Assembly: GCA_965222615.1 (NCBI GenBank)
Contig: CBDCUI010000007.1
Span: forward strand, 758,885 to 822,884
Length of the DNA stretch: 64,000 nucleotides
From: Gammaproteobacteria bacterium
GTDB taxonomy: Bacteria > Pseudomonadota > Gammaproteobacteria > UBA4575
Direction: 5' to 3'
The notes below the pieces were generated by a model. It was not told where the DNA came from and ran no database searches. It saw only the letters and a list, made by a program, of their open reading frames with translations. The first letter of the stretch is position 1; the number at the start of each line of letters is the position of its first letter. Shown here one piece after another: positions 2,776 through 63,745 of this stretch. The position numbers were made by a program, and so were the translations under genes.

Positions 2776-3319
2776 TTTACGTATTATTGGCGGCACTTGG
2801 CGCAGTCGTCGTATTCAATTTGTCGATCATCCTGAAATTCGTCCCACGCCTGACCGTGTGCGCGAAACCTTATTTAATTGGTTGTCTAATTCGATCAATG
2901 GTGCCAAGTGTCTAGATGTATTTGCCGGAAGTGGTGCGTTAGGATTTGAAGCTGCATCACGAGGCGCCAGTCAAGTGGTGTTGGTGGATAAGGACAAATC
3001 CTGTATTGAAATGTTGCTTAAACAGAAACAGTTACTCGATGCACAACAGCTTGAAATTGTACATCAAGACGGCTTGCAATATTTGCAACAAACCACACAG
3101 CAGTTTGATTTGGTGTTTTTAGATCCGCCCTTTAACAGCGGACTACTTCGGCAAGCCTTACGGTTCTTGAGCGAAGGTTCGATCATGGCGCCTAAGGGGT
3201 TTGTATATATTGAAAGCAGTGTACAAGAAACAGCCTCTACTAGTTTGCAGAAGTTACATTGTCTACGTGATAAAGTAGCTGGAGAAGTGCATTATGGGTT
3301 ATACGAAATTTCAAAATAA
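2750..3319 (+). CDS. rsmD: 16S rRNA m2G966 methyltransferase
   Basis: LRIIGG..R, RPTPDRVRETLFNWL, FAGSGALG and DPPF motifs; start uncertain. Confidence 0.92.
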   Translation: MLVVQKKNSLRIIGGTWRSRRIQFVDHPEIRPTPDRVRETLFNWLSNSINGAKCLDVFAGSGALGFEAASRGASQVVLVDKDKSCIEMLLKQKQLLDAQQLEIVHQDGLQYLQQTTQQFDLVFLDPPFNSGLLRQALRFLSEGSIMAPKGFVYIESSVQETASTSLQKLHCLRDKVAGEVHYGLYEISK

Positions 3320-29713: not shown

Positions 29714-29931
29714 TTGTTCATTTTCTTTGCTTGTCCAAAGCCTTAATTAAATAGACTAGGGGAACCAAAAGAAAAGACCCCCGAATTTACTTGCCCTTCG
29801 GGTTCACTCGCTACACAGAATGACTTTACTGTCGGCATGATTCGCATCCTGCTCAGCATGCCTCAAATGAACATCCCTGTTCATTTGTCAGCAGTCTTAT
29901 CTGCTTGCTCGTCAAGCAAATAATGGGAATT
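29714..29931 (+). repeat. Dispersed structured repeat, copy 2 (diverged)
   Basis: Same ends as the copy at 15141. Confidence 0.7.
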
Positions 29932-30060
29932 TAAGCAGCATCAAAAATGATTGCTTTCGTCCAATAGCAATGGTATGGCCTCCCTCAACTTTAAACGGCA
30001 TCGTAATGTGCCCATACTGGAAGCGATAGAACCAGTTACTTTGAATAAAGGAGACCATAC

Positions 30061-31095
30061 ATGAACAAGATTACACGCATGGGTGTGGATTTGGCAAAGC
30101 ATGTTTTTCAACTACACGGGGTGGATCGCACGGGAAAGTGCGTATTCAAACGACGCTTATCTCGAAGCAAGTGGCTTAAGGTATTAGTGGAGCATGTTGA
30201 ACCGGGTGGTGAGATTGGCATGGAGGCCTGTTCGGGTGCACACCACTGGGCTCGTGTATTACAACAACGAGGCTATGTGGTGAAATTGATTGCACCCCAG
30301 TTTGTAAAGCCTTATGTAAAGAGCAACAAGAATGATGCCAACGATGCCGAAGCCATTTGCGAAGCCATGAGTCGCCCCAACATGCGCTTTGTCACGATCA
30401 AAAGTATTGAACAGCAAGACATTCAGGCCCTGCATCGTGTGCGTAATACTTTGGTGCAACAACGCACCGCTAAAGCCAATCAGATTCGAGGCTTAGTGAG
30501 TGAATATGGCTTAGTCGCACCCCAACAGTTACATCGATTACGCGCTGCAATACCGACTTGGTTAGAAGACGGAGAGAATGGCTTAACGCCACACTTTCGT
30601 TCTTTACTACAGGGACTTCAACATGACGTACTAACATTAGATGCGCGTGTAAAAGAACTTGATCAAACGATTGAACAACAGGCCAAACAAAACGAAGTCA
30701 CCAAGCGTCTACAACAGCTACGAGGGGTCGGGCCGATGGTGGCCACAGCATTGATTGCCACGGTAGGCGATGCCAAACAATACAAGAGCAGTCGCCAGAT
30801 GGCGGCAGCCTTAGGCTTAACCCCCAGACAACACAGTTCAGGCAATAAAGAGCGTTTACTGGAAATCAGTAAACGCGGCGATGCCTATCTGCGCACCTTA
30901 CTCATTCACGGAGCAAGGGCTGTCGTCTCGCAAGCGAAACATAAAGAGGATCGATTGAGTCAGTGGGTCACGCATCTTTCTAAAACCAAACATACGAATG
31001 TGGCCGCTGTCGCACTGGCGAATAAAACCGTGCGTATGGCATTTGCAATGTTGCGAGATGAAAGTGAATATGATCCGAACTTTGCGCTTATGTGA
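30061..31095 (+). CDS. IS110-family transposase/recombinase (A)
   Basis: DEDD RuvC-like motifs GVDLAK, MEAC, KNDANDA; HSSG serine loop; AVALANK. Confidence 0.95.
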   Translation: MNKITRMGVDLAKHVFQLHGVDRTGKCVFKRRLSRSKWLKVLVEHVEPGGEIGMEACSGAHHWARVLQQRGYVVKLIAPQFVKPYVKSNKNDANDAEAICEAMSRPNMRFVTIKSIEQQDIQALHRVRNTLVQQRTAKANQIRGLVSEYGLVAPQQLHRLRAAIPTWLEDGENGLTPHFRSLLQGLQHDVLTLDARVKELDQTIEQQAKQNEVTKRLQQLRGVGPMVATALIATVGDAKQYKSSRQMAAALGLTPRQHSSGNKERLLEISKRGDAYLRTLLIHGARAVVSQAKHKEDRLSQWVTHLSKTKHTNVAAVALANKTVRMAFAMLRDESEYDPNFALM

Positions 31096-31139
31096 AATAA
31101 AACAATTAACGAAATTACATGTACTTACACTTAAGAGGA

Positions 31140-31350
31140 TTATCTACCACGATTGCAAAGTAATTTATTAGATGGCAAACCGGTCGAACCGACCTAAGCG
31201 TAACCCGTGAATGTCCAGGTACTTCGAGTACGTAATAGCGATTGGGTGCTTAGGTGCGAATACACCATCCTGGCCCAGCATCAACGCTTGCTATCAATAG
31301 AGGCCGAATATACGTGTGCAGTCGACTCTACTTTGTCATTGAATATTTTG
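31140..31350 (+). ncRNA. Predicted bridge/seekRNA of element A
   Basis: Stem ACCTAAGC/GCTTAGGT enclosing GAATGTCC and AATAGCG (target matches); second loop with ACCAT and ATATAC (circle-junction matches); ends approximate. Confidence 0.8.
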
Positions 31351-31391
31351 CTTGCAAACGGAGGGAGGCCATATACGGACATTTTATAAAT

Positions 31392-31697
31392 TCAGCAACA
31401 TGGAATGCCTGAAATAATCATACCGGATAAAATCCAAATAAATAATCCGAGGAATAATAAATAAATTGAAATATCATTTTTAAAAATAGTGGGTAGCATA
31501 ATCAAAGGCAAACTAAAAATTGCGAATATCCCTGCAAATAATATATCTGACTTATCTATGCCAAACCTAAAGATTAAGAAAGGACCAAATAAAGCATCAT
31601 AGTCTGATGGCGGGGATCCATAAAGAGAGAAATAGCTTACAAGACCAAATACTAAAAACGCTATTGAAAGTAGAATAAAGTATTTAAATTTTTTCAC
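31392..31697 (-). CDS. Small membrane protein (28-bp-site cassette)
   Basis: 101 aa, about 3 TM segments, AT-rich, between two 28-bp sites. Confidence 0.7.
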   Translation of the reverse strand: MKKFKYFILLSIAFLVFGLVSYFSLYGSPPSDYDALFGPFLIFRFGIDKSDILFAGIFAIFSLPLIMLPTIFKNDISIYLLFLGLFIWILSGMIISGIPCC

Positions 31698-39221: not shown

Positions 39222-39896
39222 ATGCAATCCAAAATAATCGCCATCGTTACAACTGTGATTTGTATTGCCTTGTTAGCCAATTGGGCTTGGTCTGAGAAAT
39301 CTGACGGAGAAGTCGAAGTCGACAGTCAGCATGCTAAGGCCATTTTTGCTGGGGGTTGTTTTTGGTGTATGGAACCACCATTCGACAAATTGGATGGGGT
39401 CTTGTCAACGGTATCAGGCTATACCGGGGGCCACACTGAAAATCCTACTTATAAACAGGTGTCATCTGATATTACGGGTCATTATGAAGTCGTCGAGGTT
39501 ACCTACGACCCCAATAAAATTGATTATGCAACGTTGCTAAATGTTTTTTGGCATAACGTTGACCCATTAAATGATCGGGGGCAGTTTTGTGATAATGGAA
39601 ATAGTTATCGCACAGCGATATTTTATTTAAATGATGAGCAAAAAAAACTCGCCGAAAATTCAAAACAAGAACTCATGGAATCAAACTATTTCAAAGATGA
39701 GATTGTAACGGTGATAGAAGCTGCAAAAACATTTTATCCAGCCGAGGATTATCATCAGAATTATTACCAAGTGAACCCTATTCGTTACAAATACTACCGT
39801 TTTGCATGTGGCCGTGATAAACGCCTTAAAGAGTTATGGGGGGGATCTGCTGGAAAAGCTGGTCCATTGATACCATCTTTAGATCTCGCACACTAG
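39222..39896 (+). CDS. msrA: Exported peptide-methionine (S)-S-oxide reductase
   Basis: Signal peptide, FAGGCFWC, AEDYHQ; last 16 aa come from the repeat unit. Confidence 0.95.
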   Translation: MQSKIIAIVTTVICIALLANWAWSEKSDGEVEVDSQHAKAIFAGGCFWCMEPPFDKLDGVLSTVSGYTGGHTENPTYKQVSSDITGHYEVVEVTYDPNKIDYATLLNVFWHNVDPLNDRGQFCDNGNSYRTAIFYLNDEQKKLAENSKQELMESNYFKDEIVTVIEAAKTFYPAEDYHQNYYQVNPIRYKYYRFACGRDKRLKELWGGSAGKAGPLIPSLDLAH

Positions 39897-40228
39897 CCGC
39901 TGCAACTAAGGCTGGTCCGTTAATACCAACCACTGGTCTCGCACGTTAATCACTGCTGGAAAAGCTGGTCCATTAATACCATCTTTAGAACTCGCACACT
40001 AACCGCTGCAACCAAGGCGGGGCCATTAGTCCCAACAACAGGTCTTGCACGTTAATTGCTGCTACGAAAGCGGGACCACTTGTACCAACCATTGACCCGG
40101 CACATTAATCGCTGCAACCAAGGCGGGGCTATTAGTCCCAACAACAGGTCTTGCACGTTAATTGCTGCTACGAAAGTAGGACCACTTGTACTAACCACCG
40201 ACCACGCACACTAACCGCTGCAACCAGG
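39846..40228 (+). repeat. Tandem array of 7 full plus 1 partial diverged 53-bp units
   Basis: Units start at 39846, 39899, 39952, 40005, 40058, 40111, 40164, 40217. Confidence 0.9.
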
Positions 40229-40349
40229 GGGGTCGCCTGTGCCGCACTTAAGCCTAGTAAATTAATTGCCACAACTTATCGACAAACGTGTGAAATCGAT
40301 CGCTATTCTTGCTAGACATTTCCCATAAAATTAATTAATCTACCTACTA

Positions 40350-54259: not shown

Positions 54260-54499
54260 ATATCTACTTTATTTATTTCGGCAAGAAGGAAACGTTCAGT
54301 TCATTTTTATAATCTTGTCGCTGGGTTCTCGGACCCAACGGAGTGCACTTTGATAAATTAGTTCTACGTAACCAAGTCCTCATGACTGACTACAGGGAAC
54401 TTTTGTTACGGTAATAGCGAGTGCAAGGAAGTACGAGTGAGAGTTCGCATCATGGATGTTGCTTTCAGTTAAAATTAGCTGTTTCTTGCAAAACCATTT

Positions 54500-54625
54500 G
54501 CGCTGAACATCACGTAATTCTTCGAATGCTCGTACTTTTCGGCGGCTCGTGAACTCGCTTCGCTCAAACAGGCACTCGCCTTCTTTCCGAAAAGAACTGC
54601 GCTTCTCAGCGTGATGTAATGCGCG
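54500..54625. repeat. REP/MITE-like structured intergenic element
   Basis: Nested inverted repeats (TTTTCGG/CCGAAAA, CATCACG) around AACTCGCTTCGCTCAAAC; single copy in window. Confidence 0.4.
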
Positions 54626-54770
54626 AATAAGAGGCTTTGAATTTAGATTATAATGAATGTCTGCATTCGGCCAATAGCAATGGTATGGCCTCCCTCTACT
54701 TTAAACGGCATCGCAATGTGCCCAAACTGGAAGCGATTATAACCAGTCAGTAAAAGAAGGAGACCATACA

Positions 54771-55805
54771 ATGAACAAGGTTACACGCATGGGTGTCGAT
54801 TTGGCAAAGAATGTTTTTCAATTACACGGCGTAGATCGCACGGGAAAGTGTGTTTTTAAACGACGCTTGAGTCGAAGTAAGTGGATCGATACGTTGTGTG
54901 CTGCAGCCGAATCGGATTGTGAGATTGGGATGGAAGCCTGTAGCGGTGCGCATCACTGGGCACGGATATTAAAACAACGTGGCTATGTCGTAAAACTCAT
55001 TGCTCCCCAGTTTGTAAAGCCCTATGTAAAAAGCAACAAGAATGATGCCAAGGATGCTGAAGCGATCTGTGAAGCCATGAGTCGTCCTAACATGCGATTT
55101 GTAACCATGAAGAGCATTGAACAACAAGACCTTCAAGCCATGCATCGTGTTCGCAGTACTTTAGTGCAACAACGTACCGCCAAAGCCAATCAAATACGCG
55201 GCTTGGTGAGTGAATACGGCCTGGTCGCACCACAACAACTGCATACCTTACGCAAAACAATTCCCACTTGGTTGGAAGATGCTGAGAATGGTTTAACGGA
55301 TTGTTTTCGGTCTTTATTGCAAGGGCTGTGGAATGATTTCATCGGATTACATCAGCGTGTACAAGAATTAGATCAAGCGATCGAACACTTCGCGAAACAA
55401 AACGAAGTAACAACCCGGTTACAGCAATTACGTGGCGTAGGACCAATGGTAGCCACCGCTTTGATTGCAACTGTCGGGGATGCAAAACAATATAGAAATA
55501 GTCGTCAGATGGCCGCATCTTTAGGGTTAACGCCCAGACAACATAGCTCAGGCAACAAAGAACATTTACTCGGCATCAGTAAACGTGGCGATGCCTATCT
55601 ACGCACCTTACTCATCCATGGAGCACGTGCTGTGGTCTCGCAAGCCAAACATAAAGAGGATCGTTTAAGTCGCTGGGGGACTAATCTTGCAGAGCAAAAA
55701 CATACGAATGTGGCCGCGGTGGCACTGGCGAATAAAACTGTACGCATGGCATTTGCCATGCTACGTAATGGAACCGATTATGATCCTGCGTTGGCAGTAA
55801 CCTAA
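54771..55805 (+). CDS. IS110-family transposase (A')
   Basis: GVDLAK, MEAC, KNDAKDA, HSSG, GISKRG. Confidence 0.95.
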   Translation: MNKVTRMGVDLAKNVFQLHGVDRTGKCVFKRRLSRSKWIDTLCAAAESDCEIGMEACSGAHHWARILKQRGYVVKLIAPQFVKPYVKSNKNDAKDAEAICEAMSRPNMRFVTMKSIEQQDLQAMHRVRSTLVQQRTAKANQIRGLVSEYGLVAPQQLHTLRKTIPTWLEDAENGLTDCFRSLLQGLWNDFIGLHQRVQELDQAIEHFAKQNEVTTRLQQLRGVGPMVATALIATVGDAKQYRNSRQMAASLGLTPRQHSSGNKEHLLGISKRGDAYLRTLLIHGARAVVSQAKHKEDRLSRWGTNLAEQKHTNVAAVALANKTVRMAFAMLRNGTDYDPALAVT

Positions 55806-55834
55806 AAACAAAATAACGATACTTAAGGAAATTC

Positions 55835-56040
55835 ACATCACGATTGCGAAGTAATCTATTAGATGGTAAACCGGTCGAACCGGTGCAAGTGAAACTCGAG
55901 AATGTCCGTGTACGGTACAGTACGTAATAGCGATTGAGAGCTTGCGCGCGAATACACCATCATGGCCCAGCATCAACGTATGCTAACCATTGAGGCCGAA
56001 TATACGTGTGCAGTCGACCTTGCTTTGCCAAACAATATTT
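55835..56040 (+). ncRNA. Predicted bridge/seekRNA of A'
   Basis: Guides GAATGTCCG (55900-55908) and AATAGCG (55926-55932); stems covary with element A; ends approximate. Confidence 0.8.
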
Positions 56041-56092
56041 TACTTGCATTATGAGGGAGGCCATATACGGTCATTCAAAATAAGATAGTAAT

Positions 56093-56500
56093 TTATCTAA
56101 CTCTCCAGTATCGCTCAATAAAAGCGTATTTAGCTACCCCTATCCAATAAGGTACAAAGCATAATATTGGTGCAACTATGTACCACAAATCTGATGATTT
56201 CCATTCCTGAAATTTTATTCCTTCAATTGCTGCAATAACCACATATCCAATTCCAAATACAACTTCATTACCTATAATTATTAAAGCAATTATTATCCAA
56301 AACCATTGTTTAAAAATATAACGCTCATACGCATATCCATACAAAGCTACAATTCCAAACGGAAGCGTTGCCCACATTACGTAGTCCTGTATCTCGTTAG
56401 GCCCAAGACTAGCCTCTGGAATGAAAATTTCAAATACAATTAAGAGAATATTTATTAATATAAATAAATAAAAATAACTTTTACGCAGTAGCTTTAACAT
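56093..56500 (-). CDS. Small membrane protein (inverted cassette)
   Basis: 135 aa, about 4 TM segments, AT-rich. Confidence 0.75.
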   Translation of the reverse strand: MLKLLRKSYFYLFILINILLIVFEIFIPEASLGPNEIQDYVMWATLPFGIVALYGYAYERYIFKQWFWIIIALIIIGNEVVFGIGYVVIAAIEGIKFQEWKSSDLWYIVAPILCFVPYWIGVAKYAFIERYWRVR

Positions 56501-56554
56501 TTATTAAATAAAGAATAATTCTTTATAACGAAAAATCGGATGTCTGCTTTGGGT

Positions 56555-57785
56555 TGCCGATTCAATTGATCATCGCAACACATTGGCTAAATCGTTCTGC
56601 CGGTGTTTCAAATTCTAATGTTTTCCTAGGTCGCTCATTAAGTTGGCGAGCAACCGCATTGAGTTTGTGTTGAGAGTGTACCGATAAATCTGTGCCTTTG
56701 GGGAAATACTGACGAAGTAGTAGATTTGTATTTTCATTGGAGCCTCGTTGCCACGGACTTTGTGGATCACAGAAGTATACTTTGATGTCTGTCGCTAAGG
56801 TAAAGCGTTGGTGATCTGCCATCTCTTTGCCGCGATCCCAGGTTAAGGATTGATACAGTTCACTTGGTAGTTTTTTTGATTGTTTGATGAGTGCATTGAT
56901 GACGCTCTTGGTATCTTTGTTTTTGACTTTCACCAACATCACATAGCGTGTATGTCGCTCAACCAAGGTAGCAATGTAACTGTTGTTTGAGCCTGCAATG
57001 AGATCCCCTTCCCAATGCCCTGGCACGGCGCGATCCTCCACCGATGCCGGACGTTGTCGAATGGATACGGCATTCGTAATTTGACCTAAACCTTCATTTT
57101 TCAAACTGGCTTGCTTTGACTGTCGTAAGGTACGTTGCGTGCGCAGATACACAAGTAACTCCTTTTTCAGGGCGCCACGCGCTTGAATAAACAGACTGCG
57201 ATAAATCGTTTCGTGTGACACGGTCTTACTCTCATCATGGGGATGGGTACGTTTTAGCCAACCCGCAATTTGTTCTGGGGACCAGTGTAATTGCAGTTTG
57301 GTTACCACGACATAACACAAGTAGGGATTCGTAGCGAGTTTACACGCTTTCGGGCGACGCGCTCGATTCCACGCAGCTTGCTCCGCTTCGCTCGCACGAT
57401 ACGTCACAACGCCGCCATTGCGCTGAATCTCGCGGCTAATCGTGGAAGGTGAACGCTTCAATTGTTTGGCAATCTGTCGCATGGATAAGTCACAAGCGAG
57501 TCCACGAGAAATTTCTTCGCGTTCCGATAACGTCAGACTGAGTCGTGATCGTGTTCGTTGAGGAGGACGAATGCCACCTGTTTGTGCAAGTATCCGTCGT
57601 ATCGATGAGTGCCCACGGTCAAAAAGTCGAGCAATAGCGTGTAGAGAGTCGCCTTGCTGCCAGCGATCCCACATCACCTGTTTCTGTGCTTCGCTATAAT
57701 AAATGCGTGTTCGATATTTCATCGTTTTCACCCCATCTTCTTTGTGTTTTAAGATAAAGTGTTGCGATGATCAATTGAATCGGCA
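56555..57785 (-). mobile_element. IS30-family element (1231 bp)
   Basis: Perfect 26-bp terminal IR TGCCGATTCAATTGATCATCGCAACA; 2-bp flanks GT/GC. Confidence 0.92.
56562..57731 (-). CDS. IS30-family DDE transposase
   Basis: RSPSTISREI, WSPEQI, GHWEGDL, TWDRGKE, PWQRGSNENTN. Confidence 0.96.
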   Translation of the reverse strand: MKTMKYRTRIYYSEAQKQVMWDRWQQGDSLHAIARLFDRGHSSIRRILAQTGGIRPPQRTRSRLSLTLSEREEISRGLACDLSMRQIAKQLKRSPSTISREIQRNGGVVTYRASEAEQAAWNRARRPKACKLATNPYLCYVVVTKLQLHWSPEQIAGWLKRTHPHDESKTVSHETIYRSLFIQARGALKKELLVYLRTQRTLRQSKQASLKNEGLGQITNAVSIRQRPASVEDRAVPGHWEGDLIAGSNNSYIATLVERHTRYVMLVKVKNKDTKSVINALIKQSKKLPSELYQSLTWDRGKEMADHQRFTLATDIKVYFCDPQSPWQRGSNENTNLLLRQYFPKGTDLSVHSQHKLNAVARQLNERPRKTLEFETPAERFSQCVAMIN

Positions 57786-57828
57786 GCCGTTAGCAGACAC
57801 AATTCAAACTAAATAACGGGAATCTAGG

Positions 57829-57857
57829 TTGGAAACTCTAAATAACAATTCTAAAAT
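57829..57857 (+). promoter_or_regulatory. Linker promoter 1
   Basis: TTGGAA-N17-TAAAAT. Confidence 0.6.
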
Positions 57858-57943
57858 GACTGCTTACGACCCAATGTATGGACACCTCCAAGCTAAGCAA
57901 TTAGTTTGTGTGGTGTTAGAAACACAAAAGAAGGAGTCCATAC

Positions 57944-58987
57944 ATGAAACATCTAAACATAGTTGGCGTTGATTTAGCAAAAAACGTAATCCAAGTTTGC
58001 GTGATGCGCGCGCAGCGACAAGAAGTAATCAATCGTTCCTATAGTCGTACTAAATTTGCAGTATTTCTCGTTAAACAACAGCGCAGTGTCATCGCCTTTG
58101 AAGCATGTGCCAGTAGTCATTATTGGGCACGAAAAGCCAAAGCATTGGGGCATACCATCAAAATCATTCCGGCAAAAGCGATCACACCGTATCGTCAAGG
58201 CCATAAAACCGATATCAATGATGCCCGCGCGATCGCTGAAGCGGCGAGCCGTCCCCACCTACTTGAAGCCCCATTAAAGAGTGTTGAACAACAAGGCTTG
58301 CAAGCCGTACAACGTTCAAGAGAGCTTTTGGTACAAGAGCGAACCGGTCTATCCAACCACATCCGTGGCATATTGATGGAATTTGGCATCGTCATTCCTA
58401 AAGGCTTTGCCGCCTTGCATCAACAGATACCCGAGGTACTAGAAGATGGGGAGAACGAGCTACCCGATCTATATCGCCCGACGTTACAGATATTGTACGA
58501 ACGCTTAGTGCAACTCAAAACAACCATCACGATACTTGATCAACAAATTGCCGCCCTCATCAAACAACATCCAGGTTGCGAAACGCTCATGAAGATAGAA
58601 GGTGTGGGCCCAATCAGTGCGATATTACTGTATGCCAGCCTTGGTAGTGGCGATGCGTTTAGCCAAGGTAGACAATATGCGGCGTACTTAGGGTTAACGC
58701 CCAAGCAATACAGCAGTGGCGGGAAAACGAATCTTATTGGGATAAGTAAAAAGGTTGCGAATAAACGTTTGCGCTCCGTACTCATTCAAGGAGCACGTGC
58801 TTATGTGCACAAGCTCAAAGAACCGAAAAGCCAAAAAGATCGCTGGCTGCTGGCACTGATTGAACGTGCCGGCTATGGCAAGGCGGCGGTAGCGTTAGCC
58901 AACAAAAATGTGCGCACCGCATGGGCCATGCTGACCCGGGGGACAACGTACAATAAACAACATACAACCACGATGCACATTGCATAA
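57944..58987 (+). CDS. IS110-family transposase (B)
   Basis: GVDLAK, FEAC, KTDINDA, YSSGGK, GISK, AVALANK. Confidence 0.95.
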   Translation: MKHLNIVGVDLAKNVIQVCVMRAQRQEVINRSYSRTKFAVFLVKQQRSVIAFEACASSHYWARKAKALGHTIKIIPAKAITPYRQGHKTDINDARAIAEAASRPHLLEAPLKSVEQQGLQAVQRSRELLVQERTGLSNHIRGILMEFGIVIPKGFAALHQQIPEVLEDGENELPDLYRPTLQILYERLVQLKTTITILDQQIAALIKQHPGCETLMKIEGVGPISAILLYASLGSGDAFSQGRQYAAYLGLTPKQYSSGGKTNLIGISKKVANKRLRSVLIQGARAYVHKLKEPKSQKDRWLLALIERAGYGKAAVALANKNVRTAWAMLTRGTTYNKQHTTTMHIA

Positions 58988-59009
58988 AAACAAAACCAAG
59001 ACACTACGT

Positions 59010-59205
59010 TACATAAAAGTGTAGAAGAGGTTAGGCAAGTAGACCTAGGTAAAGAATAAAGAGATTCGCTTCGATGAAACCTGCTCCGCTTTGAGGATAA
59101 ATAGAATCCATCGACCCAATGAGGCATCGAAGTGCGCATACATACAGGGCTAGAAGATCGCAACTTCACGAAAAAGCCGAATATACATCTGCGTCTTTTT
59201 CTTTA
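59010..59205 (+). ncRNA. Predicted bridge/seekRNA of element B
   Basis: Stem CTTCGATG/CATCGAAG enclosing TCCGCTTTG and ATCGACCCAA; donor loop CATACAT/ATATACA; ends approximate. Confidence 0.85.
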
Positions 59206-59309
59206 TCAATTTCTGTTTGCTAAACTGGCGGTGTCCATATACAAAGCGGACATTTCAGAGTTTAAACAAACGCAGTGATATCCACGTAAAAATACATGGT
59301 ATTTCAGTT

Positions 59310-60017
59310 ATGTTTAATAAATTAATAGTTTCAATCCTGGTTTTGTTGCTTTGCGCTTGTGGCAACGAAGTTGACTCTGAGGTTAGCTCTGAAGTTGATT
59401 ACTATGAATTTGATTTCACAAACAAAGAAAAGACAGAAAAGATTACTTTACGATTTAGTAATGCTAACGTTTCTAGATTTCCAGGATGGGAGCATGATCG
59501 CAATAGACGCGTGTCTGTTTCATTGTGGTATCCATCATTATTAGATGCGGCTTCTCCAAATGTTTGGATGTCAAAAAGTGAAGAGCAAGAAAAGCTGAGT
59601 ACCAAGCCAAATCCTGAAGATAGAAAAATCAATTTAAGAGTTGGCGCTTCCAGTAGTAATACTATCCTAGACCCTAGTATGACTCTTGAAGAGAAAACGA
59701 CATTTCATTGTCATATTGATGGCAGACTTAAAAAATTCTCGGAAGACGGACAAGCCGGTAATTTTTATCGTTATAAGTTTACTGAAGAGACTAAACCCCC
59801 AAGAATTCATTACCTATACCACCCAATCGAAAAAATAAAAGGGATATATTGTATAAAGTGTAATGGAACAACTTGCCAGCTAATTGGAATAACTGATTTT
59901 GGTGTAAGTTATACAGCTCTTGAAAGTTATGTTGAAGGGAGAATGGTAGATGAAGCAATAGAAATTCATGGGGGTATTAATGAATATCTACAAAATAAGG
60001 TTGTTACGAGCAAATAA
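59310..60017 (+). CDS. Hypothetical lipoprotein (cassette)
   Basis: MFNKLIVSILVLLLCA-C lipobox; the ORF-track start at 59217 lies inside the IS end. Confidence 0.75.
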   Translation: MFNKLIVSILVLLLCACGNEVDSEVSSEVDYYEFDFTNKEKTEKITLRFSNANVSRFPGWEHDRNRRVSVSLWYPSLLDAASPNVWMSKSEEQEKLSTKPNPEDRKINLRVGASSSNTILDPSMTLEEKTTFHCHIDGRLKKFSEDGQAGNFYRYKFTEETKPPRIHYLYHPIEKIKGIYCIKCNGTTCQLIGITDFGVSYTALESYVEGRMVDEAIEIHGGINEYLQNKVVTSK

Positions 60018-60058
60018 TTATTAAATTGATAATAGAAGGAAAGACTGCTTTGGATGTC

Positions 60059-60086
60059 ATGTCCGCTAATGGCCGAAAGCGGTCAT
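60059..60086 (+). repeat. Intact 28-bp site (downstream type)
   Basis: ATGTCCGCTAA-TGGCCG-AAAGCGGTCAT. Confidence 0.85.
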
Positions 60087-60114
60087 AATTTAAATCTTTA
60101 TAAGGGAAAATTGG

Positions 60115-60143
60115 TTGGAAACTCAAATATCAAGTTCTAAAAC
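60115..60143 (+). promoter_or_regulatory. Linker promoter 2
   Basis: TTGGAA-N17-TAAAAC. Confidence 0.5.
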
Positions 60144-60169
60144 GACTGCTAACGACCCAAAGCGGACAT
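60142..60169 (+). repeat. Intact 28-bp site (upstream type; empty target for element B)
   Basis: ACGACTGCTAA-CGACCC-AAAGCGGACAT. Confidence 0.85.
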
Positions 60170-60184
60170 TTTAAATTTAATGAA

Positions 60185-60406
60185 ATGGCAACTGAACAAC
60201 TAACTTTTATTCTATTCAGTTTAGTTTGGTTCTTGATAGGTATTGGTCTCATATTTGTAAAAATAGATGCTGATAATCTGAAATCCAAATCTCATGCTAT
60301 GCCAGGACTTGCATTGTTTCGATTTTCTTTGTTCAGATGGGGAGCAGTATTAGTTTGTATTATTGGTAGCACAATATTTTTGTTATTGGGCCTTCGTTGG
60401 TTATAA
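60185..60406 (+). CDS. Small 2-TM membrane protein (cassette)
   Basis: 73 aa, fills the space between two sites. Confidence 0.7.
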   Translation: MATEQLTFILFSLVWFLIGIGLIFVKIDADNLKSKSHAMPGLALFRFSLFRWGAVLVCIIGSTIFLLLGLRWL

Positions 60407-60445
60407 AATCGAATGACCGTATATGGCCTCCCTCCGTTTGCAAGC

Positions 60446-60656
60446 AAAATATTCAATGACAAAGTAGAGTCGACTGCACACGTATATTCGGCCTCTATTG
60501 ATAGCAAGCGTTGATGCTGGGCCAGGATGGTGTATTCGCACCTAAGCACCCAATCGCTATTACGTACTCGAAGTACCTGGACATTCACGGGTTACGCTTA
60601 GGTCGGTTCGACCGGTTTGCCATCTAATAAATTACTTTGCAATCGTGGTAGATAAT
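60446..60656 (-). ncRNA. Predicted bridge/seekRNA of element A, copy 2
   Basis: Reverse complement of 31140-31350. Confidence 0.8.
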
Positions 60657-60699
60657 CCTCTTAAGTGTAAGTACATGTAATTTCGTTAATTGTTTTATT

Positions 60700-61734
60700 T
60701 CACATAAGCGCAAAGTTCGGATCATATTCACTTTCATCTCGCAACATTGCAAATGCCATACGCACGGTTTTATTCGCCAGTGCGACAGCGGCCACATTCG
60801 TATGTTTGGTTTTAGAAAGATGCGTGACCCACTGACTCAATCGATCCTCTTTATGTTTCGCTTGCGAGACGACAGCCCTTGCTCCGTGAATGAGTAAGGT
60901 GCGCAGATAGGCATCGCCGCGTTTACTGATTTCCAGTAAACGCTCTTTATTGCCTGAACTGTGTTGTCTGGGGGTTAAGCCTAAGGCTGCCGCCATCTGG
61001 CGACTGCTCTTGTATTGTTTGGCATCGCCTACCGTGGCAATCAATGCTGTGGCCACCATCGGCCCGACCCCTCGTAGCTGTTGTAGACGCTTGGTGACTT
61101 CGTTTTGTTTGGCCTGTTGTTCAATCGTTTGATCAAGTTCTTTTACACGCGCATCTAATGTTAGTACGTCATGTTGAAGTCCCTGTAGTAAAGAACGAAA
61201 GTGTGGCGTTAAGCCATTCTCTCCGTCTTCTAACCAAGTCGGTATTGCAGCGCGTAATCGATGTAACTGTTGGGGTGCGACTAAGCCATATTCACTCACT
61301 AAGCCTCGAATCTGATTGGCTTTAGCGGTGCGTTGTTGCACCAAAGTATTACGCACACGATGCAGGGCCTGAATGTCTTGCTGTTCAATACTTTTGATCG
61401 TGACAAAGCGCATGTTGGGGCGACTCATGGCTTCGCAAATGGCTTCGGCATCGTTGGCATCATTCTTGTTGCTCTTTACATAAGGCTTTACAAACTGGGG
61501 TGCAATCAATTTCACCACATAGCCTCGTTGTTGTAATACACGAGCCCAGTGGTGTGCACCCGAACAGGCCTCCATGCCAATCTCACCACCCGGTTCAACA
61601 TGCTCCACTAATACCTTAAGCCACTTGCTTCGAGATAAGCGTCGTTTGAATACGCACTTTCCCGTGCGATCCACCCCGTGTAGTTGAAAAACATGCTTTG
61701 CCAAATCCACACCCATGCGTGTAATCTTGTTCAT
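60700..61734 (-). CDS. IS110-family transposase (A)
   Basis: Translation identical to 30061..31095. Confidence 0.95.
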   Translation of the reverse strand: MNKITRMGVDLAKHVFQLHGVDRTGKCVFKRRLSRSKWLKVLVEHVEPGGEIGMEACSGAHHWARVLQQRGYVVKLIAPQFVKPYVKSNKNDANDAEAICEAMSRPNMRFVTIKSIEQQDIQALHRVRNTLVQQRTAKANQIRGLVSEYGLVAPQQLHRLRAAIPTWLEDGENGLTPHFRSLLQGLQHDVLTLDARVKELDQTIEQQAKQNEVTKRLQQLRGVGPMVATALIATVGDAKQYKSSRQMAAALGLTPRQHSSGNKERLLEISKRGDAYLRTLLIHGARAVVSQAKHKEDRLSQWVTHLSKTKHTNVAAVALANKTVRMAFAMLRDESEYDPNFALM

Positions 61735-61866
61735 GTATGGTCTCCTTTATTCAAAGTAACTGGTTCTATCGCTTCCAGTATGGGCACATTACGATGCCGT
61801 TTAAAGTTGAGGGAGGCCATACCATTGCTATTGGCCGAAAGCGGACAAAATCTAAAGGGAAACTGG

Positions 61867-61895
61867 TTGGATTCAATGAAATACAAACTTAAAAT
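61867..61895 (+). promoter_or_regulatory. Linker promoter 3
   Basis: TTGGAT-N17-TAAAAT. Confidence 0.6.
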
Positions 61896-61981
61896 GTCTC
61901 CTTACGACCCAATGTATGGACACCTCCAAGCTAAGCAATTAGTTTGTGTGGTGTTAGAAACACAAAAGAAGGAGTCCATAC

Positions 61982-63025
61982 ATGAAACATCTAAACATAG
62001 TTGGCGTTGATTTAGCAAAAAACGTAATCCAAGTTTGCGTGATGCGCGCGCAGCGACAAGAAGTAATCAATCGTTCCTATAGTCGTACTAAATTTGCAGT
62101 ATTTCTCGTTAAACAACAGCGCAGTGTCATCGCCTTTGAAGCATGTGCCAGTAGTCATTATTGGGCACGAAAAGCCAAAGCATTGGGGCATACCATCAAA
62201 ATCATTCCGGCAAAAGCGATCACACCGTATCGTCAAGGCCATAAAACCGATATCAATGATGCCCGCGCGATCGCTGAAGCGGCGAGCCGTCCCCACCTAC
62301 TTGAAGCCCCATTAAAGAGTGTTGAACAACAAGGCTTGCAAGCCGTACAACGTTCAAGAGAGCTTTTGGTACAAGAGCGAACCGGTCTATCCAACCACAT
62401 CCGTGGCATATTGATGGAATTTGGCATCGTCATTCCTAAAGGCTTTGCCGCCTTGCATCAACAGATACCCGAGGTACTAGAAGATGGGGAGAACGAGCTA
62501 CCCGATCTATATCGCCCGACGTTACAGATATTGTACGAACGCTTAGTGCAACTCAAAACAACCATCACGATACTTGATCAACAAATTGCCGCCCTCATCA
62601 AACAACATCCAGGTTGCGAAACGCTCATGAAGATAGAAGGTGTGGGCCCAATCAGTGCGATATTACTGTATGCCAGCCTTGGTAGTGGCGATGCGTTTAG
62701 CCAAGGTAGACAATATGCGGCGTACTTAGGGTTAACGCCCAAGCAATACAGCAGTGGCGGGAAAACGAATCTTATTGGGATAAGTAAAAAGGTTGCGAAT
62801 AAACGTTTGCGCTCCGTACTCATTCAAGGAGCACGTGCTTATGTGCACAAGCTCAAAGAACCGAAAAGCCAAAAAGATCGCTGGCTGCTGGCACTGATTG
62901 AACGTGCCGGCTATGGCAAGGCGGCGGTAGCGTTAGCCAACAAAAATGTGCGCACCGCATGGGCCATGCTGACCCGGGGGACAACGTACAATAAACAACA
63001 TACAACCACGATGCACATTGCATAA
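61982..63025 (+). CDS. IS110-family transposase (B)
   Basis: Translation identical to 57944..58987. Confidence 0.95.
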   Translation: MKHLNIVGVDLAKNVIQVCVMRAQRQEVINRSYSRTKFAVFLVKQQRSVIAFEACASSHYWARKAKALGHTIKIIPAKAITPYRQGHKTDINDARAIAEAASRPHLLEAPLKSVEQQGLQAVQRSRELLVQERTGLSNHIRGILMEFGIVIPKGFAALHQQIPEVLEDGENELPDLYRPTLQILYERLVQLKTTITILDQQIAALIKQHPGCETLMKIEGVGPISAILLYASLGSGDAFSQGRQYAAYLGLTPKQYSSGGKTNLIGISKKVANKRLRSVLIQGARAYVHKLKEPKSQKDRWLLALIERAGYGKAAVALANKNVRTAWAMLTRGTTYNKQHTTTMHIA

Positions 63026-63047
63026 AAACAAAACCAAGACACTACGT

Positions 63048-63243
63048 TACATAAAAGTGTAGAAGAGGTTAGGCAAGTAGACCTAGGTAAAGAATAAAGA
63101 GATTCGCTTCGATGAAACCTGCTCCGCTTTGAGGATAAATAGAATCCATCGACCCAATGAGGCATCGAAGTGCGCATACATACAGGGCTAGAAGATCGCA
63201 ACTTCACGAAAAAGCCGAATATACATCTGCGTCTTTTTCTTTA
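63048..63243 (+). ncRNA. Predicted bridge/seekRNA of element B, copy 2
   Basis: Same sequence as 59010-59205. Confidence 0.85.
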
Positions 63244-63302
63244 TCAATTTCTGTTTGCTAAACTGGCGGTGTCCATATACAAAGCGGACATTTATAAAAT
63301 AA

Positions 63303-63653: not shown

Positions 63654-63681
63654 ATGACAGCTATTGGCCGAAAGGAAACAT
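63654..63681 (+). repeat. 28-bp site (downstream type, somewhat diverged)
   Basis: ATGACAGCTAT-TGGCCG-AAAGGAAACAT. Confidence 0.8.
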
Positions 63682-63699
63682 AAAATGGGACGCAGTTGG

Positions 63700-63728: not shown

Positions 63729-63745
63729 GACTGCTATCGACCCAA

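Follow-up and report, generated by a model that had tools for sequence, protein, structure and literature searches.

Elements A and A' of a gammaproteobacterial genome, probable IS1111-group insertion sequences with a predicted bridge RNA (seekRNA) in the 3' non-coding end

Elements A and A' are very probably related insertion sequences of the IS1111 group, within the IS110 family, and their 3' non-coding end is predicted to specify a bridge RNA / seekRNA. Both elements lie in the window, the whole 64,000-nt stretch of DNA that was analysed (C7:758885-822884 in genome coordinates). The anatomy of the elements, the protein family of their transposases, an RNA structure conserved with compensatory changes and guides that track the flanks across homologs were each observed for A and A'. 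The RNA-guided mechanism is already known, having been published in 2024, and A and A' are a rediscovery of the IS1111 bridge RNA / seekRNA; the first-pass annotation of this DNA had left the system unnamed. The downstream non-coding region of IS1111 elements is described as the source of the seekRNA, with its top-strand match placed 5' of the bottom-strand one and the matched stretches overlapping in the target (PMC11187229). In PMC11208160, 93.0% of IS1111 elements are predicted to have a bridge RNA, with target and donor loops, in their right end.

Element A copy 1 spans 29968-31376 (+) and is flanked by CCAATAG (29961-29967) and GGACATTT (31377-31384). The crossover base is shared, standing as C at both 29968 and 31376, and only one of these two belongs to the element. 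The transposase gene (30061-31095, +) encodes a 344-aa DEDD / IS110-family RNA-guided transposase with PF01548 (2e-20) and PF02371 (3.2e-24), which scored 347 bits compared to a cut-off of 140 on the NCBIfam model NF033542 "IS110 family RNA-guided transposase". The N-terminal DEDD/RuvC-like domain (PF01548) and the C-terminal domain (PF02371) that mark the IS110 family were both detected in A and in A'. Alignment of the two transposases, which share 84% aa identity, revealed the word GLTPRQHSSG in each, in agreement with the C-terminal-domain motif GL-P----S(t)G described for IS1111 transposases (PMC11187229). Non-coding DNA of A amounts to 93 nt before the start codon (29968-30060) and 281 nt after the stop codon (31096-31376), the downstream part being the longer as in IS1111 elements. 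Subterminal inverted repeats of 13 bp, TATGGCCTCCCTC / GAGGGAGGCCATA, were found in A and A' (in A, the left repeat at 29974-29986, +, with its partner at 31361-31373). The extensions outside these repeats in A are CAATGG (6) and TAC (3), with the shared C counted on each side, similarly to the repeats of about 11-13 bp and asymmetric extensions of 6-7 bp on the left and 3 bp on the right that are described for IS1111 (PMC11187229). The word GGCCTCCCTC occurred 7 times compared to 0.81 expected, and the 6 exact occurrences are the six ends of the three A/A' copies in the window.

A second copy of element A, at 60419-61827 (-), shows 100% identity to copy 1; its right flank is GGTCATTC. Element A' occupies 54678-56068 (+), with its transposase gene, likewise encoding 344 aa, at 54771-55805. 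Across the whole genome six copies were detected: four of A, three of them 100% identical and one with a 16-bp tandem duplication, and two of A', which differ from each other at 2 bases. The duplication (CGCTTGCTATCAATAG), in the A copy at C9:255311-256739, is located in the apical part of the donor loop at the equivalent of window position 31284, and this variant of A recurs in contigs of runs X3 and X4. Contigs of other sequencing runs (X1, X3, X4 and X5) were compared with window positions 54300-62000. The two A' SNPs were present in these runs, and the contigs break at the element ends with no clean empty-site joint. No end-to-end (circle) joint of the ends was seen in the assembled contigs of the same four runs, contigs being a form of data that drops rare forms. 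A search of element A against a plasmid collection gave no match.

All six genomic copies of A and A' were found at ...TTCG(G/T)CCAATAG-C-GG(A/T)(C/T)AT, where hyphens set off the crossover C. The first-pass annotation had placed the three insertions of the window at CCAATAG-C-GG(A/T)CATT, which our reading bears out, and the three further genomic copies occupy the same guide-matched target. This target is a hairpin, ATGTCCGCT-TTCGGCCAAT-AGCGGTCAT, with the insertion at the loop-stem boundary. Matches to the loop-A motif of the hairpin numbered 10 in the genome, of which 6 are occupied by A or A'. That target hairpins are few and clustered is what would be expected if hairpins had multiplied with the element already inside, rather than by repeated site-specific insertion. 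We hold this to be extremely improbable, since the six sites are unrelated in sequence beyond about 30 nt on either side and since three copies of the element are 100% identical while their flanks differ, even inside the target.

The hairpins form a low-copy intergenic family with members at window positions 60065-60094, 60148-60177, 61827-61856 and 63660-63689 and at L082:1010-1045, 2590-2700 and 3170-3200. Family members have a stem of ATG(A/T)C(C/T)GC / GCGG(A/T)CAT, mismatched at its centre (A·A or T·T), and one of two loop types, TTTCGGCCAATA (in either orientation) or TAACGACCCAAA. They sit just past stop codons, often with a GGTTGGAWWC word about 30 nt upstream, and the family had no match in Rfam. 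A high-copy REP as the target was rejected for this genome, which has only the 10 loop-A matches, and was unsupported in four other hosts. An integron attC as the target was likewise rejected. An integron integrase is encoded at C9:397324-398262 (TIGR02249, 490.5 bits), none of the listed hairpin-motif matches is nearby, and the repeats beside the integrase are unlike the hairpin, so the attC association described for some IS1111 elements was not found here. These repeats (L081:10100-17300) form an array ending ...CTTGTTAGG / TTGTTAT at a spacing of 580-2460 nt, and they end in what we take to be the attC-type GTTRRRY word. The integrase with its repeat array looks like a chromosomal integron, unrelated to the targets of the insertion sequences.

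Two other repeats were noted in the window. A 51-nt inverted repeat (56541-56591 and 57749-57799; 84% complementary) surrounds a 389-aa reading frame, and its arms are longer composite hairpins with the same terminal ...GC(A/G)GACA arm as the insertion-sequence targets. A tandem array with a 53-nt unit lies at 39847-40232, where 5 overlapping 174-nt copies at 53-nt spacing are 64-82% identical to the reference copy.

The bridge RNA, or long seekRNA core, of element A is predicted to span 31150-31324 (+), closed by a helix of CGAUUGC (31150-31156) with GCAGUCG (31318-31324). Within it, the predicted target-binding stem-loop (31192-31255, +) consists of an outer stem in which ACCTAAGC (31192-31199) pairs with GCTTAGGT (31248-31255), a second stem CCC/GGG (31204-31206/31244-31246) and an apical hairpin GUACU-UCG-AGUAC (31219-31231). 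Both guides occupy a symmetric internal loop. The putative right-target guide GAAUGUCC (DNA GAATGTCC; 31209-31216, +) complements the top strand directly right of the crossover (GGACATTC). The putative left-target guide AAUAGCG (31234-31240, +) reads as the top strand does from left-flank position -5 through the crossover C to right-flank position +1, and would thus pair with the bottom strand. These guides match the DNA right and left of the insertion point in 6/6 genomic copies. In element A' the guides are GAATGTCCG (55900-55908) and AATAGCG (55926-55932), with stems GTGCAAGT/GCTTGCGC and CTC/GAG. All of the motifs named by the first-pass annotation were found where it had put them in A and A', and its claim that the stems differ between the two elements and still pair also held. 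In the target stem-loop, 10 of the 22 stem columns differ between A and A' and every pair is kept (4 double changes, 2 changes of C-G to U·G). None of the 15 guide columns differs, compared to 83 of the 282 columns of the whole 3' end.

Local folds of A, A' and a third element, B (see below), were alike in having an outer stem, a short second stem, a 9+9-nt internal loop that bears the guides and an apical hairpin. Among the folds tried, only this local target stem-loop folded consistently; folds of the whole 3' end were unremarkable compared to shuffles (z -1.13 and -0.12). Rfam searched over 29800-31600 returned no family at threshold and only weak, unrelated matches, and a promoter scan found no sigma-70-like promoter on the + strand inside element A. 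Among the sequencing runs listed, none was of RNA. Just upstream of A copy 1, at 29833-29887 (-), two adjoining hairpins with GGAU loops were observed that resemble the TwoAYGGAY RNA motif below threshold (31.3 bits compared to a gathering score of 43; E = 0.018).

For comparison with homologs, one genome per species was scanned. By this approach 585 matched stretches were obtained, 527 of which encode relatives of the transposase, and the best 80 (66-83% aa identity) were used. Element ends in these relatives were placed by conserved terminal words. The resulting 3'-end alignment has 69 rows (67 loci plus A and A'), 13 loci having been dropped: L006 and L041 were mis-anchored, the 3' ends of L046, L064 and L066 were identical to another row, and the right end of L027, L031, L033, L037, L042, L052, L054 and L068 was absent from the stored DNA.

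RNAalifold applied to the 69 rows recovered the stems proposed by the first-pass annotation. Over the 15 pairs of the target stem-loop, 97.2% of 1035 cells pair, compared to 26.5-51.0% in controls with the partner shifted by 1-3 columns, and no shuffle out of 500 equalled the observed value on any of five measures. Changes on both sides were found in 12 of the 15 pairs, so that the covariation anticipated between A and A' holds in the larger alignment, and the alignment displays the conserved secondary structure that is looked for in a seekRNA / bridge RNA. The replacement of CCC/GGG by CUC/GAG is unique to A' among the 69 rows (column 148/190: C-G 68, U-A 1). The closing helix (columns 91-97 with 269-275) is invariant in sequence and covariation is therefore uninformative on it either way; the small hairpin at columns 125-133 has no informative variation, and covariation says nothing on it.

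The guides were then compared with the flanks of each homolog in a register with the crossover C as origin. In this register the 3' guide (columns 179-185) equals left-flank positions -5 to -1, the C and right-flank position +1, and the 5' guide (columns 152-159) is the reverse complement of right-flank positions +1 to +8. Over left-flank positions -1 to -5 (n = 62 rows), guides matched their own flanks at 284 of 310 positions compared to 198.8 +/- 6.0 after permutation. Over right-flank positions +1 to +8 (n = 64 rows), own matches numbered 381 of 512 compared to 316.4 +/- 6.5. Neither value was attained in 10000 permutations; the rows are related and non-independent, and these counts overstate significance and are not true probabilities. 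Outside the guide no signal was detected, with 12 matches (of 186) against 12.9 permuted at left-flank positions -6 to -8 and 29 against 32.1 permuted at right-flank positions +9 to +10. Retargeted homologs, whose guides spell their own different flanks, are L019, L023, L032, L071, L074, L077 and L079. For example, L023 has flanks GCGAA-C-GGACTTAATC and guides GCGAACG and GAUUAAGUCC; L077 has flanks ATAAA-C-GCGTGTATC and guides AUAAACG and GAUACAC; and L032 and L079 have the right flank GCCAGTT and the guide AACUGGCG. A poor fit between guide and flank on at least one side was judged by eye in 5 of the 69 rows (L014, L021, L044, L048 and L060). The arrangement described for a seekRNA was thus found here: the complement to the top strand lies 5' of that to the bottom strand, they overlap at the insertion point, and among relatives each follows the target. 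The proposal that structure and guides are under selection is supported by the conserved structure and by guide columns that follow the flanks of each homolog.

Guide matches in a single sequence are by themselves weak evidence, and the family-level tests are decisive. When any 7-mer shared with the 33-nt target window on both strands was counted, 160 of 1000 shuffles did as well, a non-significant result; two junction-anchored 7-mers together were reproduced in 18 of 50000 shuffles. The loose test would suit a reading in which the 3' end is a relic of DNA, having captured the left half of a palindromic target, and the protein alone chooses the site. The resemblance of GAATGTCC...AATAGCG to the left arm plus the loop end of the target also suits it, as does the fact that, in the window, the right guide equals or nearly equals the left arm of the hairpin targeted. 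We regard this reading as very improbable: homologs with non-palindromic targets, such as L023, still have a guide complementary to the right flank, and the guides of L025, L030 and L053 go with the right flank rather than with the left arm, for which reason mimicry of the left arm by the right guide was also rejected as a general rule. Compensatory changes in the stems around the guides point to RNA. Protein coding in the 3' end was rejected as well, and this too speaks against a DNA relic, as no reading frame is conserved and the 60-aa frame at 31207-31389 is absent from A'.

At right-flank position 3, the six genomic sites have A in 2 and T in 4, the T being a mismatch to the guide U, as the first-pass annotation had noted for one base of the right guide; one of the four sites with T also has T at position 4, a G·T wobble. 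Three A copies that are 100% identical over 1413 nt lie one at GGACAT and two at GGTCAT, and insertion at the mismatched site is therefore recent and real. In the family, rows with guide U at position 3 (48 rows) have target A in 35, T in 10 and C in 3 (13/48 non-A), compared to mismatches in 5 of 61 rows at position 2 and 4 of 60 at position 4; most non-matches at position 5 are U·G wobbles (18/51). The identical copies and the family counts together support the tolerance that had been proposed at the GG(A/T) position, and right-flank position 3 is relatively tolerant of mismatch across the family. The target stem carries its T·T or A·A mismatch exactly at this position, and in the orientation demanded by the left guide of A the common position-3 base is T, opposite guide U.

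Beyond the guides, a CGGCC(A) block lies 6-10 nt left of the crossover, where positions -6 to -10 are C in 53, C in 49, G in 40, G in 44 and C in 39 of 62 rows. CGGCC is kept in the left flanks of most of the relatives L001-L080, whose hosts span several orders. No guide column tracks it, as seen in the matches at left-flank positions -6 to -8 given above. Guiding of CGGCC by a GGCCG word in the RNA was rejected, since the RNA of 22 rows has GACC, and CGGCC is retained in those of their flanks that were inspected (L034, L038, L043, L048, L057, L072 and L076 among others). In 4 host genomes the full motif was no commoner than a reversed control, and in one of these genomes full-motif matches cluster a few hundred bases apart. 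It is doubtful, in our estimate, that CGGCC is a second, guide-independent determinant, read by the recombinase or through a DNA hairpin. If it were, its geometry would be unlike the stem-loop gate of ISPpu10, the stem being formed with the right target and the crossover placed at the loop-stem boundary.

The donor-binding loop is predicted at 31257-31317 (+), with ACCAU at 31264-31268, a stem of GGCC (31273-31276) with GGCC (31302-31305) and AUAUAC at 31308-31313. ACCAU complements the left end AATGGT and AUAUAC is the same as the right end, so the match of this loop to the junction CATATA-C-AATGGT, claimed by the first-pass annotation, stands at the level of motifs. It is further backed by left-end position 7 (G/T), which is complementary to RNA column 209 (C/A) in 63/66 rows. 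In the donor-loop stem, 46 rows have C-G and 22 have U-A at the pair 220/254. What weakens the claim is that ACCAU/CCCAU (CCAUY) can also pair in cis with GAUGG (31171-31175; columns 114-118). In L059 and L069 the left end ATGAG is paired with RNA CUCAU, and this change is three-way, so that it does not tell pairing with the donor end from cis pairing with GAUGG. The donor-guide reading is therefore likely, though less secure than the target-guide reading. AUAUAC is almost invariant: 5 of the 69 rows deviate and only one is matched in both places (L014, where right end and RNA alike read ACAC; in L002, L024, L039 and L074 the deviation is confined to one place). Due to this near-invariance, covariation cannot test AUAUAC as a donor guide.

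The same observations allow for a short seekRNA in which the target loop is the sole guide, ACCAU and AUAUAC are scaffold, and the ends are recognised by protein via the subterminal repeats. RNAalifold pairs columns 114-118 with 210-214, where 98.0% of cells pair, AUAUAC hardly varies, and an 82-nt seekRNA with target matches only is reported to have sufficed for movement of ISEc11 (PMC11187229). We nonetheless think this unlikely, as column 209, which lies outside the cis helix, complements left-end position 7, L014 has altered its right end and RNA alike to ACAC, and donor-complementary loops are reported in IS1111 elements (Durrant et al., PMC11208160).

By the two-loop reading, which we prefer, the 3' non-coding end would be transcribed into the bridge RNA (alias seekRNA). 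Its 5' guide GAAUGUCC(G) would pair with the top strand right of the crossover C, and its 3' guide AAUAGCG would pair with the bottom strand left of and across the crossover C. The donor loop, through ACCAU and AUAUAC, may match both element ends as joined in the excised circle (CATATA-C-AATGGT), and the RNA-bound DEDD recombinase would then join circle and target with strand exchange at C. The target would be the low-copy palindromic hairpin ATGTCCGCT-loop-AGCGGTCAT, with insertion at the loop-stem boundary. Production of the RNA, its binding by the recombinase and movement via a circle are presumed for A and A' by analogy with published work on IS1111/IS110.

Element B, a third IS1111-type element (57872-59242, +), served as an internal control. 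Its transposase gene lies at 57944-58987, the aa identity to the transposase of A is 41%, and its predicted guides are UCCGCUUUG (59085-59093) and CGACCCAA (59112-59119). Two further copies occur in the window, one at 61910-63280 and one that begins at 63743 and is truncated by the window end (64000); in the genome 5 full copies and 1 cut copy were found, all 100% identical. The site of B, ...ACGACC-C-AAAGCGGACAT, is a loop variant of the hairpin used by A and is located 4 nt left (upstream) of the crossover of A, and an uninterrupted copy of the target of B is present at 60148-60177. The guides of B are in the same loop, fold and register as those of A and are shifted to fit the site of B.

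Among known systems, ISEc11, ISPa11 and ISKpn4 as described by Siddiquee et al. 2024 (PMC11187229) resemble A and A' in having a DEDD transposase of about 340 aa, subterminal inverted repeats and a long 3' non-coding end, and in an RNA internal loop whose top-strand match lies 5' of the bottom-strand match with an overlap at the insertion point. Retargeting is seen both among their relatives and among those of A and A'; the same source describes natural retargeting among IS1111 relatives and targets that include REP and attC hairpins. ISPa11 is further like A and A' in its palindromic-repeat target, a likeness drawn from the description in PMC11187229. Unlike these three elements, as they are described there, A and A' have another target sequence and are known here from sequence alone. 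The closest transposase among the best 80 of the 527 relatives has 83% aa identity, and no close relative was found among them.

IS621 and the IS110 group (Durrant et al. 2024, PMC11208160; Hiraizumi et al. 2024, PMC11208158) are similarly described with a two-loop RNA for target and donor, in which each loop reads the sides flanking a shared core, one on either strand. By contrast to IS621, whose RNA is encoded in the left end and whose core is the dinucleotide CT, A has its RNA in the right end, a single C common to donor and target, and long subterminal repeats. ISPpu10, as presented in a preprint (10.64898/2026.03.19.712850), is like A in its palindromic intergenic repeat target and in conservation of the flanks beyond the guided bases. 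In that account a 5' extension together with the left target makes the ISPpu10 stem, and ISPpu10 has a CT core, whereas in A it is the right target that takes part in the stem and the crossover falls where loop meets stem. The right guide of ISPpu10 is described in the preprint as stringent save at its position 3; the tolerated change is a G·T wobble in ISPpu10 and U·T in A, and the two position-3 numberings may differ.

In annotating A, A' and B, the 3' ends are best entered as RNA genes, with the shared C taken as the boundary of each element. Co-resident and with one hairpin family in common, the three elements provide a clean natural example of IS1111 bridge RNAs, with little that is new for the field. 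The guides of A and A' are identical while their scaffold stems have drifted through compensatory changes, and B reads the same hairpin 4 nt further left. A, A' and B thus make a natural set for guide register, for U·T tolerance at position 3 and for the part of flank and hairpin features beyond the guides in the choice of site.
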